The position numbers and the translations under genes were made by a program. A stretch of 61,317 bases of DNA, filler included, from Dugesia japonica (lineage: Eukaryota): NCBI GenBank assembly GCA_001938525.1. It is 6 parts of 6 records of this genome, joined end to end, with 100 filler letters (N's around TTAATTAATTAA, not from the genome) between each part and the next. Parts side by side here need not be neighbours in the genome. Positions count along the whole stretch, not along the records: positions 41,844 to 50,370 come from MQRL01600589.1; 5 more parts are not named here. The stretch is one strand, 5' to 3'. Below the pieces are notes generated by a model. The model ran no database searches. It was not told where the DNA came from and saw nothing but the letters and a program-made list of their open reading frames with translations. Shown here piece after piece: positions 34,030 through 47,184 of the stretch. Positions within the stretch are counted from its first letter, which is position 1, and every line of letters starts with the position of its first letter.

Positions 34030-37000
34030 ATTATTGTAAAAAAGTAAAAACAGATTTTTAAGATAAATATTCATGGCAGGCAACTGGGATATTGACAGAT
34101 AAACAAGGCAAAACATCAAATTATCACAAATGAAGAACCAATAAATGCAAAACCATGGAGACAACCAATGCATTTAGAAAATAAGATATATGAAGCTGTC
34201 AAAAATTTGTTTGACAATGGCATTATTAGGAAGTATAATTGTCAATGGAACACCCTGTTAGTTTGTGTTTGGATAAATGAAAAGAAAATCGTTAAATTAT
34301 GTCTAGATTTTAGAAAACTAAATGCAAACACAGAAAGACAGGCATTTTCGATGTCCAATGCAGAGGAAATACTAGACAATTTCAGTGGTTCAAGATATTT
34401 TAGTACTATTGATTTGGGTAATGCATATTATCAAGTTCCCTTACATAAATATTCACAAAAGAAAACAGCATTTTCTATGAAAATTTACAGTATTGTTTCA
34501 CAAGAATGCATTTTGCTATATAAGTGCATCATCTGGAACGTTTAAAGAATTAATGACAAAAGTATTAGGAAGATTGAGAGGAACGATGGTATTGTTAGAT
34601 CTTGTGGGGAGAAATAACAATTAATTTATTTATTTATGCTGACTCCAAATTTTACTAAAAAATATGTGCGTGAAGGTTTATAAATAATGGAATGTGATAA
34701 TAATAATAAATTAAAATAACACAATTTTATACTTATTTAGATTTATTAATCAAATAAAAATTACAAATAATAAAACGTATAATGATTTTTGGGATTTAGC
34801 TTAAACCGCTCTATATTGAATTTAACTGAAGGATGAAAACCGGGATTACATTACCGTACTGATGCGCCTAAGTTTCCTCACCACACGTAGATAATTCAAG
34901 ATGTGTAATTTTAGTGAGATTTTATTACAATTAAAACAGAGTATTTAAACCACTGTAATATTATCTTCAATTAAATGATTAAAAAAAATATGAAACAAAT
35001 AATGATCCAATCAGATTTTTATTTGTCCAAATCTAATAAAATTTTTACCTTTTTAATTTTACTGCTATCTTAGCAAAATTCAATTTTTAGCTTCAACTGC
35101 TATATGGTAAAAACTTTTTGGCTGCTTTTAGCTTAACAGCTATTTTATCTTGAAAAGTTTTGTCTGCCAAAACTGATTTTGTAATTAGTATATATACAAA
35201 TTTTGTGTTTACGATTACTTAACAAAATTCCTAAATAAATATGATATTACTTAAAATGGCAATTTTAATTACAAAATTTAAAAGAAGTAATCAATAGGAG
35301 TGATTTAAAATTTATTTATTTAGTGAGGAATAATATAAAATAAATAAAATAATGTAGGTTATACGTAATTATAGTAATTTTCTTCAAAATCGAATTTATT
35401 TAATTATAATTTTTAAAGATTATACTTATGACCTTGATTAAATTAACGAATTTAAACAAGTCAAGAAATTTTTTAAATAATTAAATTATTTAACTGAATA
35501 AAACTAAAGTAATTTAATGTAAGCTTAGCTTACAACCCTAACAGTATACATGGATGATATATTGATATTTTCCGAAAATTTAGAGAAGCACATTAGAATT
35601 GTAGACCAAGTTTTTAAAAGAATTCAAGAATCTGGATTAGAATTAATCTAAAACAATATCATTTATTGCGAGCAGAAATCAAATTTTTAGGACATGTAAT
35701 AGACAAGAATAGGTTTCAGACTGATTTAATAAAAATTGAAGCAATAAAAAATTTCNNNNNNNNNNNNNNNNNNNNNNNNNNNNNNNNNNNNNNNNNNNNN
35801 NNNNNTACTAGATGCCATCGGAGCAGGTTTATCGCAAATACATGAAAGAAATTTAGAACAAGTCATTGCCAATGGGTCAAATGCAAAGTCAGCTCATGGA
35901 AAAAGATATTGTATAACAAGAAAGGAATTATTTGCTTTTTACTATTATTTTAATCATTTTAAACATTATTTGTATGGAAAAATATTTTTTGTGTGAACAA
36001 ATCACAAGGTGATGGTATTTATGATGCAGACAAATCAGCCAATTACAGAATTGGATGAATTTTCTTGGTAGCGTAGATATAGTATTGGAATTTAGACAAG
36101 GTGCGCAACATACGAAAGCCGATATGCTGTCGAAAATTAATTGTGGTACGTGTGTAAAATGCTGCACTGATCATGAGAATCCAAAGGAAGGAAAAATAAA
36201 GACCAGAAGAATTAATGGTATATTAGGTTTTATTTACATATATATATGGCAAAGTAACGTAAAAGAAATTAAACAAATAAAGAAAGATATACAAATTGGA
36301 ACATGTAAAGAATTTCTATTAATAGAAGATATATAAAATAAAAAACGTCAAAATAGTGATCCCCTATAAAAAGAAAATTCAAATGGTAAAAGAAACGCAC
36401 TATTTATTGGTGCACGCAAACACTGGAAAGGCAATAAATTATTTAAAAATGAATATGATATGCAGGACTTTAGAGAAACTGTGTCAAAAGTAAATAAACA
36501 ATGTACATCGTGTCAAATGAACAAGGTAACAACAGTTAGAACAAAGAAAGAAACTATAAAATTAATCGCTAATGAACCATTTGAGAAGATTTATATTGAT
36601 ATCCAAGAAACGTTAGGATGAAAAAGATATACATATGCTTAACAGCCCCATTTAAACAAGATAAGGGATCAATAAAGAAAACAATTATGGATAAATGGAT
36701 ACTGAGATTTGATGTCCGAAAATAGATACATGTAGATTGTGGGCAGATCTTTGAATCGAGAGCTTTTAAAGAGATTACAAATTCAATGAATATTAAGATT
36801 TGTTTTTCAATTCCATATCCTCATAATGCAAACGGAATAGTATAACATCAATTCAGAACGATTGGAGATTACATTAATGCAACATTCAAAGATAGAAAGA
36901 ATAAAAATCGGGCAAAGTTAATACCAGAAATTGAATATACACTAAATTTAACAAGCCAAAAAACTTTGGCGATAAGTCCAGCAGAAATGATATTTGGTAA

Positions 37001-37170
37001 GAAGATACATAGAAAAAATAGTTTTAATAATGGCGAAAAAAATGAAGAATCTGAAGAGTTGACACCAACAAAGAGAAATTTTCAAGTTGGATACGAGGTT
37101 CTAATTAAGTTAGAAAACAGATCAAAAGACAAAGAAAGATACATAGGTCCATACGAGGTAATAAATAGAN
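34030..37170 (+). mobile_element. Ty3/Gypsy retrotransposon pol (RT, RNase H, integrase), decayed and interrupted
   Basis: LCLDFRKLN, YFSTIDLGNAYYQV, VYMDDILIFS (35544 onward), YCITRKELFA, integrase HYLLVHA..C..CQ, HVDCG..FES and SPAEMIFG. Confidence 0.92.
34593..35543. mobile_element. 951-bp solo LTR (or Ginger-type non-autonomous element) with 4-bp TSD
   Basis: TGTTAG...CTAACA termini flanked by GTAT (34589-34592, 35544-35547). Its removal restores RT ...GTMVYMDD. Confidence 0.82.
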
Positions 37171-39225: not shown

Positions 39226-40395
39226 TTAGGGTGTTCCATAAGTCTTTTCGTATTTTTGTTTTATTATTTCAAAGTAATTTTTGTAATTGATTTAAATATT
39301 TGAAACTCTATAATTATATATCATTTTGAAGACATTTTGATCCTTTATCAGACGGTAAATTAATATCTATTAAATAATTGTAAATTATTGTTTTAATTTA
39401 TTTAGACGAAATATGGATATNTTTGAAATTAGGGTACTTTTAAAAAACTATTGGAAACAAAATGTCAATGCAACTCAAGTGGCCAAGAAAATATGAGAGG
39501 TGGAAGGTGAAAACTTTGTTTCCATTTGTGTTGCTCAAAATTGGTTCAAAAAATTTAATCTGGGTCAGGATTACCTTCAAGATCAAGCACGACACGGTAG
39601 ACCTATAAAAACGGATTTCGAATGTATGCGCAACGCACTGGAGGCTAATCCATTGACCAGCACTCGAAGATTATCTGACGAACTTGGAATTCCAAAGACA
39701 TCAATTTTTAGACATCTTTGTTCAATTAGCAAGATGAACAGTTGCTTTCGACAAATTCCACACGAATTGACAGAAAATCAAATAAAACAACGTTTGATTA
39801 CGTGTAAAAAACTGCTTTCAAATCGTTCTTATGCTTGTTTTATACAACAGATTGTGACTTCAGATAAAAAAATGGGTCTACTTAGATAACCCTAACAAAC
39901 ATAATCCATGTCTTGACCCCAGACAATTGCCAAATCAGCTGCCAAAGAGAGATGGGTTATCTATAAAAGTATTATTGATCGTTTGATGGAATTTCGAAGA
40001 TGTGATCAACTTCAAACTTCTTGAAAACAATGTGGCAATTGACGTAGATCTCTACTGCTCTCAACTGGGTATGATGTACATAAAATTAAAGCAAACATAT
40101 CCAGCATTGGTAAACTGAAAGAGAATACTTCTACAGCACGATAACGCCAAACCGCACACTGCTAGGAAAACCATGGAAAAAATAATGGAGCTAAATGCCT
40201 ATAAACTTTTTTACATCCAGTGCACAGCCCAGATCTTGCGCCATCAGACTATCATCTTTTCCGGTCTATGGCACATTTTCTGCTAGGACAAAGTTTCAAT
40301 AATTTGGATGAGGTACAAAAGGGGTGCTAAGATTTTTTCAGCTCCAAAGACAGACTCGTATGACCGCCGGATCCAGTAGCTTGCCGATAGATGAA
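39226..40395 (+). mobile_element. mariner (DD34D) element, near full-length pseudogene, inserted in the Polinton integrase
   Basis: TA plus TTAGGGTGTTCCATAAG TIR. RHGRP, IPHELT, IVTSD.K, QHDNAKPH and SPDLAPSDYHLF motifs. Confidence 0.9.
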
Positions 40396-41065
40396 TTTAA
40401 TCTGGCCTCCCCAAAAATCCAGATCTTTGGAATGGAGCCGTTGACATGTAATCCAAGTTCAGACTCTCATTCCTATGGTTTGGGTTCATACTTCATAATA
40501 CTCGCTTGATCTTTAGAACTACTTAATCTCTATTGGTCAATGGTGTCAGTACTTTGCATTGAATATCTACCTCTAATCAAGGTTTCTCCATATCAATACT
40601 CGTTATGATGAGTGGGGGATTAGCATGTGGTCTAATAATTAAAGTGAAAAATATTGAGGTAAAATTTTTAAAGTCATGAGCGAAAGCTAAGTGCCATGTG
40701 AGCTTATTGTTATCCTGAAGCCTAGATTTTATAACAGGAAAAATGATTCATACCCCTCTTTGTGGTCAATTAGATAATGTAAATAAACTGTAAATTATTT
40801 TCAGCACGATTTGTCAACAACACCATTATTAGATAACCTCCCCATTCGCGCCAAATTTCATCATTATTTCGAGTCACTAACACTACACGATAGGCACTGC
40901 TTACTAGAAAAGAGAAGTTAATCTAGTTGAAAAATTCTTGTTTAAATTAATCATGAGCGGAGGTAATTGTTAGGTAGTTGTTTCTAGTATGAACGTTTAT
41001 AATTTACCAATTTACATATTACTTAGTTCCTAAAAAGGTGAGTTAATTTTAATTCTAACCACTGG

Positions 41066-41743: not shown

Positions 41744-41843
41744 NNNNNNNNNNNNNNNNNNNNNNNNNNNNNNNNNNNNNNNNNNNNTTAATTAATTAAN
41801 NNNNNNNNNNNNNNNNNNNNNNNNNNNNNNNNNNNNNNNNNNN

Positions 41844-42752
41844 CTCCAAATCCAAAATTTGCAAAGGAGATTGGTTTTACTTACTATCAGCATTGTTGCA
41901 AACTTTTTACTCAAGGCGTCATCGCAAATGCTATTGCTGCCTCTGACTATATTAGAAATTTATGAAAAAAATAAATGTCATGGAGTGGGATTTCTTATTC
42001 ATCGTCAGAGCAAGAAACAACCTTCTCCAAACAAATTACAATTCTTACAGGCTCAAAAGAAATATGCCTACTCACTGCAGATAAAATGGTACTCATGCTG
42101 AGACACAAACGCACATCTTTAATCACTGTCCGACCATGAAAAGCCAGAAGTACAACAAACAGCTGAATTCTGGAAAAGATGGCCTCAGTATTCAGGAAAT
42201 GGGACTTTGACGTACAGTATGATTGCTCTTTTCAAGGCCTAGAAACAAAGTTGAGACCCGACGTGGTTATAACTAGTAATAGGAATAACAAGATTTACAT
42301 TCTAGATGTCAATGTGCTCTATGATTCTATAGAAGGCAGTAAGAATAGACAACAAAAACAAATATGAGCAAATTCGAATGGATCTCGGGACCAAGTATCA
42401 CAAAGAAGTAACTTTCGATGCAATAATCCTTGTACCCTGGTATCTTGGGACCCAGTCAATCAAAGAGCTCTCAAAACAATTGGACGAAATAAAGCACATC
42501 TCATAGGCTCTTATAGAAAAGGTAATTAAAACCTATCATCGGATCTTTTTAGATCATATGATAAATAAGGCCAGGTTCAATACAATCGATTGCACTCCTC
42601 TACCATGATGTATGAGCTAAGTTTGTTAGAACTTTGCTGTTTGAAGAAATTAATTGCTAAAAAAAGAAAATTAAGGTTATGGACTCGTCTATACCTATCT
42701 TGACTTAATTAAGGACTAGTCACCCATCTGTATTGATTAATAAAGCTTTATT
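41844..42752 (+). mobile_element. Non-LTR retrotransposon 3' end with restriction-like endonuclease (NeSL/R5/Utopia-like)
   Basis: FIVRARNNLLQTN, CR.xG..ETQTHIFNHC (zinc knuckle), LRPDVVI...IYILDV (PD..D), K..KYE and SWDPVN. The 3' UTR ends in AATAAAGCTTTATT. Confidence 0.85.
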
Positions 42753-42759
42753 GTTTTTT

Positions 42760-43582
42760 AAATCACGTTGCGTCAAAGCCGTTCATAATCCATCGCAACG
42801 GTTTGTTTTTATTAGACAGTCGGATTTCTCTAGTCTATGTCAGTTCTAGATTGATTGTTTAGTGCACAGCAAATACTACAAATTCCGAAAGACTCATAAT
42901 ATNNNNNNNNNNNNNNNNNNNNNNNNNNNNNNNNNNNNNNNNNNNNNNNNNNNNNNNNNTTGCCCTAAACCTAATTACAACTCTGTTCTATTCCAATCAA
43001 CTTCTTGATAAAGTCCACCATGCTTGATCCCTAGAGCCAATCCTTTTACCGAAGGTACGGATCTAATTTGCCAACGTTTCTTACCTACATTGTTCTAAGA
43101 CTATAAGCTGCTTGGAAATCTGCTGCGGATATCAATACTGATTGATATGAAATTTATGACTGGTCCCTTAAATTTTTAAGGGTAATCAAGTACGCTTCGG
43201 ACACCACGTGAAACGTGATGCTTTTAATATTTCACATTCCTTTCTCAAGATAACCTGATTCTAGAGACATGTTTATGTATACAAAGAAAATGTAACTCTT
43301 CTTAAAATACCTGATGATGTACCTGAGATTGCTTGTGTTGCCACTTTGTGTTGCCGAAACAACCAAAATTTATAATGTCTATCACCTCGTTCTGATAACT
43401 GAATTACCAGATCACTTTGGACCGACTAACCCATGTTCAAATACTGCTCACATGAGACNCTTCTCACTTAAGTCTTCAAGGATCTCACATGAATAATTGC
43501 TACTACTACCAAGATCTGTACCCGTGACCGCTCTACTCTGACTTACGCCAGTAGCTTCTTAGCAATTACGGTTACTTTCCTC
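42760..43582 (-). rRNA. 28S rRNA: 28S (LSU) rRNA fragment, degenerate pseudogene copy
   Basis: Reverse complements of conserved LSU blocks: AAATCAC.T.GCGTCA, ACAGTCGGATT, AGAGCCAATCCTT..CCGAAG.TACGGATC, CTTACCTACATTGTTC, GACCGACTAACCCATGTTCAA and GCTACTAC.ACCAAGATCTG. Confidence 0.9.
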
Positions 43583-45267
43583 CGTTATTAATTGTCCTTT
43601 TTTGTTCTCTCAGTCTGTTTGTGTCTTCCAACATTTCTTTACTCTTTTTGCGACTCAATAGGTTATGGATCATCCCCATATTCAGTTCCTTAATTTCGGT
43701 TTTTTCTTTAATTATTCCTTTTGGTAACTTGTCTGACTCCTTCTTTTGTCTGTATTCTTCGTTTTCCTTCTTGTGGCATTCTTTTGAATTTCGAGTTTAC
43801 CCATCGCTGGTATATTTTCTATTTTCAGGTGTTTCACCCCAAAACTGGGATACACATTTGTCATTTTATTCTTAGAGACTTCAGTAGACATTTTTTAAAT
43901 TAATAATTTAAAAGTCTTAATAAATTTATTAAAATACTTTGTGGTGCAAATTTAGTTAATACTTACCTTGCAGTATTTAATCCTTTACTATTTAATATTA
44001 TAATATTATAAATATATTTATTTTCAGGTAATATTAATGTAATCCTTAATACTGGTTTAAATAAATTTTTATGTCCAGCAAGAACTTGATAATTTTCTAT
44101 TAAAAATTTAAATTCTTCTTTTTTTCTTTTAGTAAAATTTTATTCAAAACTTTTATTAATACCATTAAGTATTTTAATTATTTGAAAATATGGAATATCA
44201 CAATATCCATGAAAAAAGAAATATACTTTTTGTTCAGATGGATTTTATGTAAAATATAATTCCAAAGGTTTATTTAAATAAAAATATCCTAGTTTTTTAT
44301 TTCCATTCCTGTTTATTTTAATTAAATTAATATTATTTTCTAATAATAATAAACTTGTTAAAATTATATCTTTATAATCCATTTCTACTTTCATAGTTAA
44401 TAAAAAAAGTATTGTAGATTTTATTATTTCATTACTTTTAAATTTACTAATATCACCAGTTAAAAAAATATTATCAATTAATTTTTTTAAATTATTTAAT
44501 AAAATTGGATCATAATTTTTACCAAGTGATTTTTGTTTATTTAATTTAGAAATATAATCATCAATTATTTTTATTAATTTAATATGAATATATTTTTTAA
44601 TTTTATTATATAAATCTAATATATTTTTTAATTCTCGAGCAGAGTCTGATGCCATATCTAATATTTCAACCTTTGGTTTAATAATTTCTTTTTTATTTTT
44701 ATCTTGTAAATTTTCTATTATAGTTTTTACATTTTTTAAAAGTTTTTCAACATGATCAAATACTTCTTTTAAAAATTTTTAATACCATCTTGTATTTCTT
44801 TTAAATCTTTTTTTAAATCTCAAACAGAATTTTGCAAATCTTTATTTATTAATTTACGATTTTAATCTCTTGTTTAAACTCTAGAATCTCTAAATCTTGC
44901 TTTGCTTTAGATTTTTAATCTGTTGTTGCATCTCTAATTATTGTTCTTTAACAGAGTCTTTAAAATTTTTTACTTCTTTTTTAAATCCTTAAAACATGTT
45001 TTATTATATTTTATTAAATCCTTTATATTATTATATTCTTTTATTGTATTTGTAAAATATTTTAAATTAATTGCATTCAAATCATTTATTGGATCACTAA
45101 GAATTTTTAAATTAGTTATTGTATCACCATTTTCATTAATAAATTTCTTTTCATTTAATATAGATTCTAATTTTAATTTTGCTTGAAGTGTTCTTTAGAA
45201 ATTGAATTTTTACTTGTTATATTAACTGGCATATAATACATTGGAGGCATTTTCTAAAGTAAATATT

Positions 45268-45650
45268 TTATAATAAGTCTTTAAATATTAATTCTAATTC
45301 TTTAGTTATAACATCAAAATTTTCAGAATCCAAGTCAATCTTGTTTAAAAAGTATAAACATAATATACCACAAATTTTAGTTCCCCATGGTTGAAATTGT
45401 TTATAATTATAATAATTAACAAATTCTTCAACTTCTTTTGTTGGTGGTAAACCAAATGAATCGAAGTAAAATCCTCCGGAGAAGTCTTGCAAATCCTTAG
45501 GATGTTCTTCAGAAAAATAATAATCATTTTATAATGAAACCCAATGACTTCCTTTTTGATTTGAATTTTGATAATTTAAAATTACGCAGTCATTTTCTAT
45601 TCCAGAAATTTCATTATTCATTAAAACTTGTATTTCTAAATTTAAAAATT
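45268..45650 (-). pseudogene. Adenovirus-type cysteine maturation protease
   Basis: CVILNY...GSHWVS, YFDSFGLPP and Q.Q....ICGILCLYFL carry the His/Asp/Cys triad. Confidence 0.88.
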
Positions 45651-45654
45651 TAAT

Positions 45655-46128
45655 ACTAGTAATTAAATTACATGAAATATTTATCGAATGAATATTTATT
45701 ATTTGTATTGTTTTTTCAGAAACATATTCTCCTAATTTATATTCTTTTGCAGAACCCTGCGAATCTTGGGAAGCAAATCCTAATATTGTATAAAAAACAT
45801 TTATCATTAAATTTTAAAGACCCTGTTTTCGTTATTTTCATTTTTGATTTAGCTGTTGATTAATCAACTTTTATTTCAATTCCATATTCACTTGCTTTTA
45901 ATATTTCAAATAATTCATCTAATTCATAAGCTCTTTGTACTAATATTTTTTTTCACCATTAATTTCAAATGAATTATTTTTACTATTAACATTAAATATT
46001 ATATTATAACATGTAAACCATAATAATCCTAATTCATAATCATTTGGATTTTTATGTAAATTAATTGGTCTTAGTAATTTAATTTCTAAATTACTTTCTT
46101 TACCAATAATTAAAAATTGAATAGACAT
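45655..46128 (-). pseudogene. Polinton/adintovirus minor capsid, N-terminal part
   Basis: RPINL...YELGLL.F..YN.IFNV...NNSF, AYELDEL, ILGF and Y.SEK.IQI.NI.SINISCNLI. Confidence 0.75.
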
Positions 46129-46488
46129 TTTTTCTTTGAAAGAATTTAGATTTTAAAGCTATGTAAACCAAAGACTCGCAGAGCCCTGGTCGAGGTTCCA
46201 GTTTAATATCATAATCGTTTTGATTTCTTGATAAATGTGGAAATTTATATGAAATTCTTGCACCTAGAAATTTTTCACCAAGTTTTTTATTTTTTTAAAA
46301 TTATTATATACTTCTGAACATGATAAATCACAATCTAGTATAAAAGAATTATAAAATGTTATTTCATNAAATAATATTAATTTATTTATATAACCTGGTG
46401 AATAATTAATATTAATTTCATTTAAATGTTCATAAAAATCTTCTTTTTATTAACAATTTTCTTTTTATTACTTTTAATCTACATTCTA

Positions 46489-47184
46489 AGAAGATGGGTA
46501 GTAGCATTCAACCTCAGCACACATTCAGGTAGCCCCCCTCCGACGTAATCAAATTATTACATAAGTGAGGCTATATTTTTCCAATGTAAATAAACCAACC
46601 AAAAATTTGACCAATTCACATAAAAATTACCCAAACTGAGCAATCTTGAGGAAATATTGAACCAAATTCACCTGAACCAACAAAAAATTGATCACATTCG
46701 ACCTCACCGAGTAAATTTCCAACCAAATTCACCTAAAACCAATCAAAAATTGACTTCATTCAACCTCACCGAGTAAATTTCCAACTAAAAAGCCTAAAAA
46801 ATATTGCTGCTTAAAAAAGCATAAAAAATATTACCGTTTAATAAATCTAAAAATATTTTCCCAACTAAAACCCCAGAGAAATCCATAGCCACTTTGCCCT
46901 CTAATAAGCTTGAAAAACTTTCTCACCTAAATACATAGGAAAAGTTAAACCCTAGATTACCGCTTAAAATGCCTAAAAAATTTACTCAACTAAAACCACA
47001 GGAAAAAGTAGCCTCACGTACGTAATAATGTCGCGACGAAATTAATTACATTATGTAATGCACATAAATGTGTGCCACCAACTATTTACATTGGAAAAAT
47101 ATAGCCTCACTTATGTAATAATCCGTTTATGTCGAGGGGGGTTCCTGAATGTGTGCTAAGGTTGACTGCTACTATCCATTTACT
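46489..47184. mobile_element. 696-bp non-coding Polinton-type MITE with about 105-bp TIRs and 6-bp TSD
   Basis: Termini AGAAGATGGGTAGTAGCA and TGCTACTATCCATTTACT. TSD ATTCTA (46483-46488) / ATCCTA (47185-47190). Confidence 0.85.

Follow-up and report, generated by a model that had tools for sequence, protein, structure and literature searches.

R2 elements insert in the sense orientation into the 28S gene between AAGG and TAGC, and R9 elements insert in the antisense orientation. R5 of the planarian Girardia tigrina is said to use infrequently transcribed 28S genes, and its site reportedly lies within a few bases of that of R2 rather than about 82 nt away. As described in PMC5035012, R9 is a rotifer element of the R2 superclade that uses another 28S site, R2Hm-B displays an apparent 15-nt shift possibly due to target letters carried by the element, and R2NS-1_SMed is a non-specific R2-like family in planarians.

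Closer still to the locus reported here are the planarian families LIN9_SM, LIN24_SM and LIN26_SM. In PMC4640811 these families are said to target 28S rDNA, which PMC5035012 repeats, and section 10 of PMC4640811 assigns them, within the NeSL clade, to an R5/LIN cluster (96%) whose targets have diversified. S6 Fig of that paper prints the 28S reference antisense and shows LIN24_SM and LIN26_SM of Schmidtea mediterranea inserted antisense, each ending in AATAAA and, after a short spacer, a T-tail, next to which the flank reads ACATTG, ACGTTG or ACGTCG. By our hand count of the printed rows, the 3′ end lies in 28S in 14 of 17 rows for LIN24_SM and in 8 of 30 for LIN26_SM, the remainder being off-target. 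Several LIN24 rows contain only about 25 nt of 28S before unrelated sequence, which resembles a short 3′ transduction of the target. Among the LIN26 rows, T-tailed copies are found both on- and off-target, and all A-tailed copies are off-target. For LIN24, LIN26, LIN9_SM and R5-1_SM, the relevant papers among the 12 listed by our literature search were PMC5035012, PMC4640811 and PMC7650587, with no later description.

Results

The 3′ end of an RLE element

The window, by which we mean the entire analysed stretch of 61,317 nt from Dugesia japonica, consists of AT-rich eukaryotic DNA that is rich in transposon relics and gaps. Its features are collected in Table 1.

Table 1. Features identified along the window, in order of position
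Feature	Position	Strand	Basis or remark
Intronless rhodopsin-family GPCR ORF, 322 aa	4935-5906	-	Pfam 7tm_1, E 9.5e-15
Identical 100-letter joins, n=5 (44 N + 12-nt linker + 44 N)	11048, 19974, 28699, 41744, 50371		Adjacency across joins not to be trusted
Gypsy-like RT fragment	34096-34545	+	Pfam RVT_1, E 1.4e-6, below cut-off
Integrase-like remains	36000-37170		By eye
Decayed mariner-like transposase	39400-40400	+	Pfam HTH hints
Broken C-terminal coding end, RLE non-LTR element	41844-42608	+	Motifs read with X at breaks; tblastn; tree
Degenerate CCHC zinc knuckle, C-x2-(C lost)-x8-H-x4-C, second Cys lost	42076-42129	+	Read with X at breaks
Endonuclease core PD..D, as RPD-x13-D, with KY motif	about 42254-42308	+	Read-through protein
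WDPVN motif	42446-42460	+	Read-through protein
Stop TGA	42606-42608	+	End of coding part
3′ UTR, 145 nt	42609-42753	+	Sequence
AATAAA	42739-42744	+	Inside perfect 14-bp palindrome 42739-42752
T6 tail, last letters of element	42754-42759	+	Sequence; related copies stop aligning at 42748-42757; LIN24/LIN26 T-tails
Orphan decayed 28S rDNA piece, about 0.8 kb	42760-43582	-	Rfam, contigs, probe letters
N gap within 28S piece	42903-42959
Decayed Polinton/Maverick-like relic, adjoining far end of 28S piece	43575-46450	-
Tandem repeats, periods 62, 30 and 27 nt, beside Polinton-like relic	46652-46857

Over its ~760 nt, the coding end of the element changes frame five times and is interrupted by two in-frame stops, and in contigs from other copies extra letters adjoin three of these frame changes, at 41955, 42158 and 42431. 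The read-through protein also carries an AR-N-L motif, and the knuckle matched Pfam zf-RVT with an E-value of 7e-5, below the curated cut-off. Furthermore, the C-terminus matched the C-termini of full RT-RLE proteins by tblastn. Judged from these letters, the predicted protein has a CCHC knuckle followed by a PD..D/KY restriction-like endonuclease, the arrangement of RLE non-LTR retrotransposons. The copy itself is dead, and both the element and its 28S flank have decayed. Comparison of 60 proteins, most of them RT-bearing, with the window gave no match outside 41986-42511, and an RT is absent from the window. The visible part of the element begins directly after the join at 41744-41843, likely a scaffold gap that conceals the rest of it, with the 5′ junction outside the window; the downstream half of 28S and the R2 site are likewise absent from it.

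The junction and its empty target

The T6 tail is followed by antisense 28S from 42760 with zero gap, placing the junction between 42759 and 42760. A 224-nt contig from run X4, which belongs to a study other than X1 and X2, spans this junction and covers 42599-42822 with 4 differences. The corresponding empty site, ending GGCACTGGGCAG, was detected in 10 contigs of run X2 that reach exactly 42760, and the start of the flank, AAATC, is an exact match to this empty target. Because separate studies yielded the junction and the exactly matching empty site, the junction was not produced by misassembly. A preliminary description of this DNA had proposed a plus-strand RLE element with zinc knuckle, PD..D and WDPxN that is joined without a gap to minus-strand 28S, and this was borne out by the motifs, the X4 contig and the empty-site contigs taken together. 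The break had also been placed about 80 nt upstream of the R2 site. This was close to what we found: a hand count on the reference line of S6 Fig, as printed in PMC4640811, gave 84 nt to the R2 nick, and the distance becomes ~82 nt with the empty site of the window's host, which is 2 nt shorter than that reference.

An insertion between AAGG and TAGC, as in R2, was not found at this locus, where the junction is antisense and about 82-84 nt upstream. Nor was there a 3′ flank of U2 snRNA or spliced-leader RNA, as used by Utopia and NeSL-1, the Rfam matches in the window being to LSU rRNA only. Folding of the 3′ UTR RNA was no better than chance when compared with shuffled sequences (z 0.05). The palindrome at the end of the 3′ UTR puts AATAAA on both strands just 5′ of the T-run, and it could also terminate transcripts coming from the 28S side.

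The flanking 28S piece

Rfam LSU_rRNA_eukarya gave two minus-strand matches, one covering 42736-43075 and the other 43099-43694. An internal deletion is likely near 43367, because RNA reads break at this position. Compared by eye with two S. mediterranea 28S probes, taken from the PMC6884822 supplement, the piece agreed in 39 of 40 letters at 43474-43513 and in 35 of 40 at 43319-43358. RNA reads from the same organism restored the probe letters at 43321-43322, 43238 and 43247, where the window has decayed. The 28S letters are therefore likely those of a dugesiid planarian, which at the family level would agree with the planarian hosts of R5/LIN elements. The empty-site letters of the window's host differ from the reference printed in S6 Fig of PMC4640811.

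Most RNA reads on the 28S piece were less than 90% alike (33118 of 49709). At 42855-42993 the piece is unlike expressed rRNA and some DNA contigs resemble it there, while its decay confounds rDNA typing; the piece may derive from a little-transcribed second rDNA type of dugesiids. Separately, position 43191 is A in high-depth DNA contigs and in only 8 of 8990 RNA reads, a discrepancy suggesting that the organism has two rDNA classes, one of them little transcribed. In one RNA run the depth was 0-3 over the element versus thousands over 28S, too little to judge the element copy.

Other copies of the family

Summed contig depth over the element was 190-2900, as compared to 4-33 for any single listed contig. 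This indicates that the family is multi-copy, the summed depth not being a copy number. Contig pieces were evaluated from the best 24 of 3349, a selection that likely favours unique flanks and thus yields no on-target fraction. At least nine of these pieces reach the 3′ end of the element: one spans the junction, one is uninformative and seven continue differently. Among the matches listed, these seven, which represent three distinct loci and are 83-85% alike, stop aligning at 42748-42757 and run on for 58-259 nt unaligned to the 28S of the window. The three loci are probably off-target copies. No short joint to 42760 was present among the joints listed. One single-copy contig, however, found in all three DNA runs, leads from the element (to 42600) into antisense 28S (42791-42854, then from 43030 on) with the same polarity, and is likely a second, diverged candidate copy beside antisense 28S.

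The family thus appears to be site-preferring but leaky. The preliminary description had called it site-specific and had named unrelated flanks in other copies as evidence to the contrary. Preference for the site stood, given the nearby published site and the second joint; strict specificity did not, given the three loci with apparently different flanks, so that the contrary evidence appears to be present in part. In the rows of S6 Fig (PMC4640811), LIN24 and LIN26 are equally leaky, and such flanks therefore speak against strict specificity and not against site preference. A search of metagenome contigs for the junction pattern (T-run plus target motif) gave 58 matches. None of these showed similarity to the 28S piece (blastn) or to any of six RLE proteins (tblastn), and all 58 are therefore chance matches.

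Relationship to described families

A phmmer search of the whole library identified five proteins. The proteins closest to the window were the unnamed P0004, P0005 and P0010, with 46-61% identity over the knuckle, followed by P0007 and P0011, which combine a Ulp1 protease with RT and RLE; P0007 aligns over its RT and C-terminus to the R2 protein 9nl3. With the read-through protein as query, a word-indexed search yielded none of 324 candidates and a PDB search gave no matches. For the C-terminal tree, 54 of 61 rows were kept and seven were dropped for short coverage, the profile used for cutting including the window sequence. In this tree the window grouped with P0004, P0005 and P0010 at 96/86. 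The clade sits within an 11-row group (90/94) that also holds the protease-bearing P0007 and P0011-P0016 and contains no named anchor, and an arthropod/turtle group stands apart. None of the protein searches returned a named R5 or LIN protein. Because of this, and because the window is without an RT, the likely membership in R5/LIN rests on the site, the tail, the host and the indirect evidence of the C-terminal grouping.

The site and tail can be compared directly with the rows printed in S6 Fig of PMC4640811. Like LIN24_SM and LIN26_SM, the element is inserted antisense into the 28S of a planarian host, a short distance upstream of the R2 region, has a T-tail within about 10 nt of AATAAA, and occurs in both on- and off-target copies. 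Unlike them, the window copy is broken, its tail is just six T's, and its flank begins 5 nt earlier, with AAATCACGTTG in place of ACGTTG, ACATTG or ACGTCG, so that the ACRTYG position is not where it joins 28S. By hand count on the reference line, the flank starts at position 87 in LIN24/26 and at position 82 in the window, which corresponds to 89 and 84 nt, respectively, from the R2 nick. LIN9_SM is alike in its antisense 28S insertion and short T-run, and differs in its 3′ end and its 28S site, which lies outside the window's piece. When the terminal ~50 nt of the 3′ UTR were compared by eye with the 40-58 nt printed for LIN9, LIN24 and LIN26, only AATAAA and the T-run were shared, from which it follows that the window element is not one of those families. 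R2 and R9 both share the RLE-type C-terminus and the 28S target with this element and differ from it in their sites, AAGG/TAGC for R2 and a different 28S site for R9, and R5 of G. tigrina is, like it, a planarian element directed at 28S and likely shares its lineage. Within the NeSL clade, the window element likely adds a new member to the R5/LIN lineage, and is not LIN24 or LIN26 itself.

Surroundings of the locus

Pfam searches with seven neighbouring ORF pieces, including the Polinton-like relic, gave no match at cut-off level. Pieces at 45271-45813 of this relic contain HW, FDSFG and CG motifs, which we take to be those of the Polinton cysteine protease, and the adjacent tandem repeats are possibly its terminal region. 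Of the long ORFs tested, none other than the GPCR ORF was clearly a host gene. At 39400-40400 the catalytic motifs are presumably those of a mariner-like transposase. Copies of LIN25/26 lie inside Polintons according to the printed rows of S6 Fig (PMC4640811).

Discussion

Very probably, the locus preserves in decayed form the 3′ end of a non-LTR retrotransposon of the RLE type, likely of the planarian R5/LIN lineage, that was inserted by target-primed reverse transcription, with its 28S junction 5 nt from that published for LIN24_SM and LIN26_SM. By analogy with the R2/NeSL model, the endonuclease would nick the sense strand of 28S after ...GTGATTT, and the nicked 3′ end would prime cDNA synthesis on the RNA of the element, starting at its 3′ end and leaving AATAAA and the T-run against antisense 28S. 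The T-run could represent a U-tail or an untemplated addition. Since the antisense orientation would rule out the co-transcription by Pol I on which R2 relies, such an element would need a promoter of its own. Element and flank now lie outside the rDNA array, which they may have left together, or the element may have hit a 28S piece that had already strayed; co-dispersal of the element with its 28S target fits the data. A 3′ transduction of the entire 0.8-kb flank was considered as well and is unsupported, no tail being evident at its far end.

As a refinement of this explanation, the target site may have drifted within the lineage, with a distinct family nicking 28S at a position of its own, 5 nt away from that used by LIN24/26. 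The identity of AAATC with the empty target and the difference in 3′ UTR from the LIN24/26 rows printed in PMC4640811 argue for this, and the apparent 15-nt shift reported for R2Hm-B in PMC5035012 offers a precedent. The exact junction was seen only once, however, and the five extra target letters could reflect one imprecise round of priming, or the RNA may have brought target letters with it, which is how PMC5035012 reads R2Hm-B. On balance we give the separate nick slightly short of an even chance. That the element stands for an undescribed dugesiid LIN-lineage family with a nick 5 nt off that of LIN24/LIN26, and thereby for a third site at which planarian elements enter 28S in antisense, is a tentative proposal, and we lean modestly against it. 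The preliminary description went further, stating that no described element was known to use this antisense site and proposing a novel rDNA-targeting family. This could not be upheld, because LIN24_SM and LIN26_SM have been published 5 nt away, as seen in the S6 Fig alignments of PMC4640811. The site is not new, and the sole possible novelty is the 5-nt shift of the nick, which rests on one junction. The offset site may already be listed in Burke 2003 or in Repbase entries; the available portions of PMC3636483, PMC13580325, PMC7650587 and PMC3849761 do not contain the exact site of R5.

Two other readings were considered. If the family were non-specific, one copy would have entered a 28S piece by chance, for which at least three loci with apparently different flanks and the planarian precedent R2NS-1_SMed, as described in PMC5035012, could be adduced. 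Yet if an insertion into 28S is taken as given, the chance that it falls no more than 5 nt from a published antisense site is still only ~0.3% by a rough estimate (about 22 of 7400 strand-positions), a second joint of element to antisense 28S appears in three of three DNA runs, and off-target copies are printed for LIN24/26 too (PMC4640811). We consider chance entry improbable. The other reading, raised in the preliminary description, is that a 28S fragment bearing a short A-tail was retroposed against the end of the element. Indeed, the minus-strand piece is an orphan and ends in six A's. The T-run, however, comes after AATAAA, where related copies also cease to align (42748-42757), and the same order of AATAAA, T-run and antisense 28S recurs in the LIN24/26 rows of PMC4640811, which makes retroposition of the 28S fragment very unlikely.

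With the likely R5/LIN element of this locus, the antisense-28S, T-tailed behaviour described for LIN24/LIN26 is seen in what is apparently another planarian family, a finding of modest value. In the parts of PMC4640811 and PMC5035012 available to us, the T-tail and antisense transcription of the LIN families appear only as alignments, and an intact copy is therefore worth having. Should the 5-nt offset hold across copies, it would allow the determinants of the RLE nick position to be mapped by comparison, which is relevant to work on rDNA-targeted gene insertion. If true, a family with a shifted nick would form, together with LIN24/LIN26, a natural pair for the study of nick drift and of priming by T-tailed elements.
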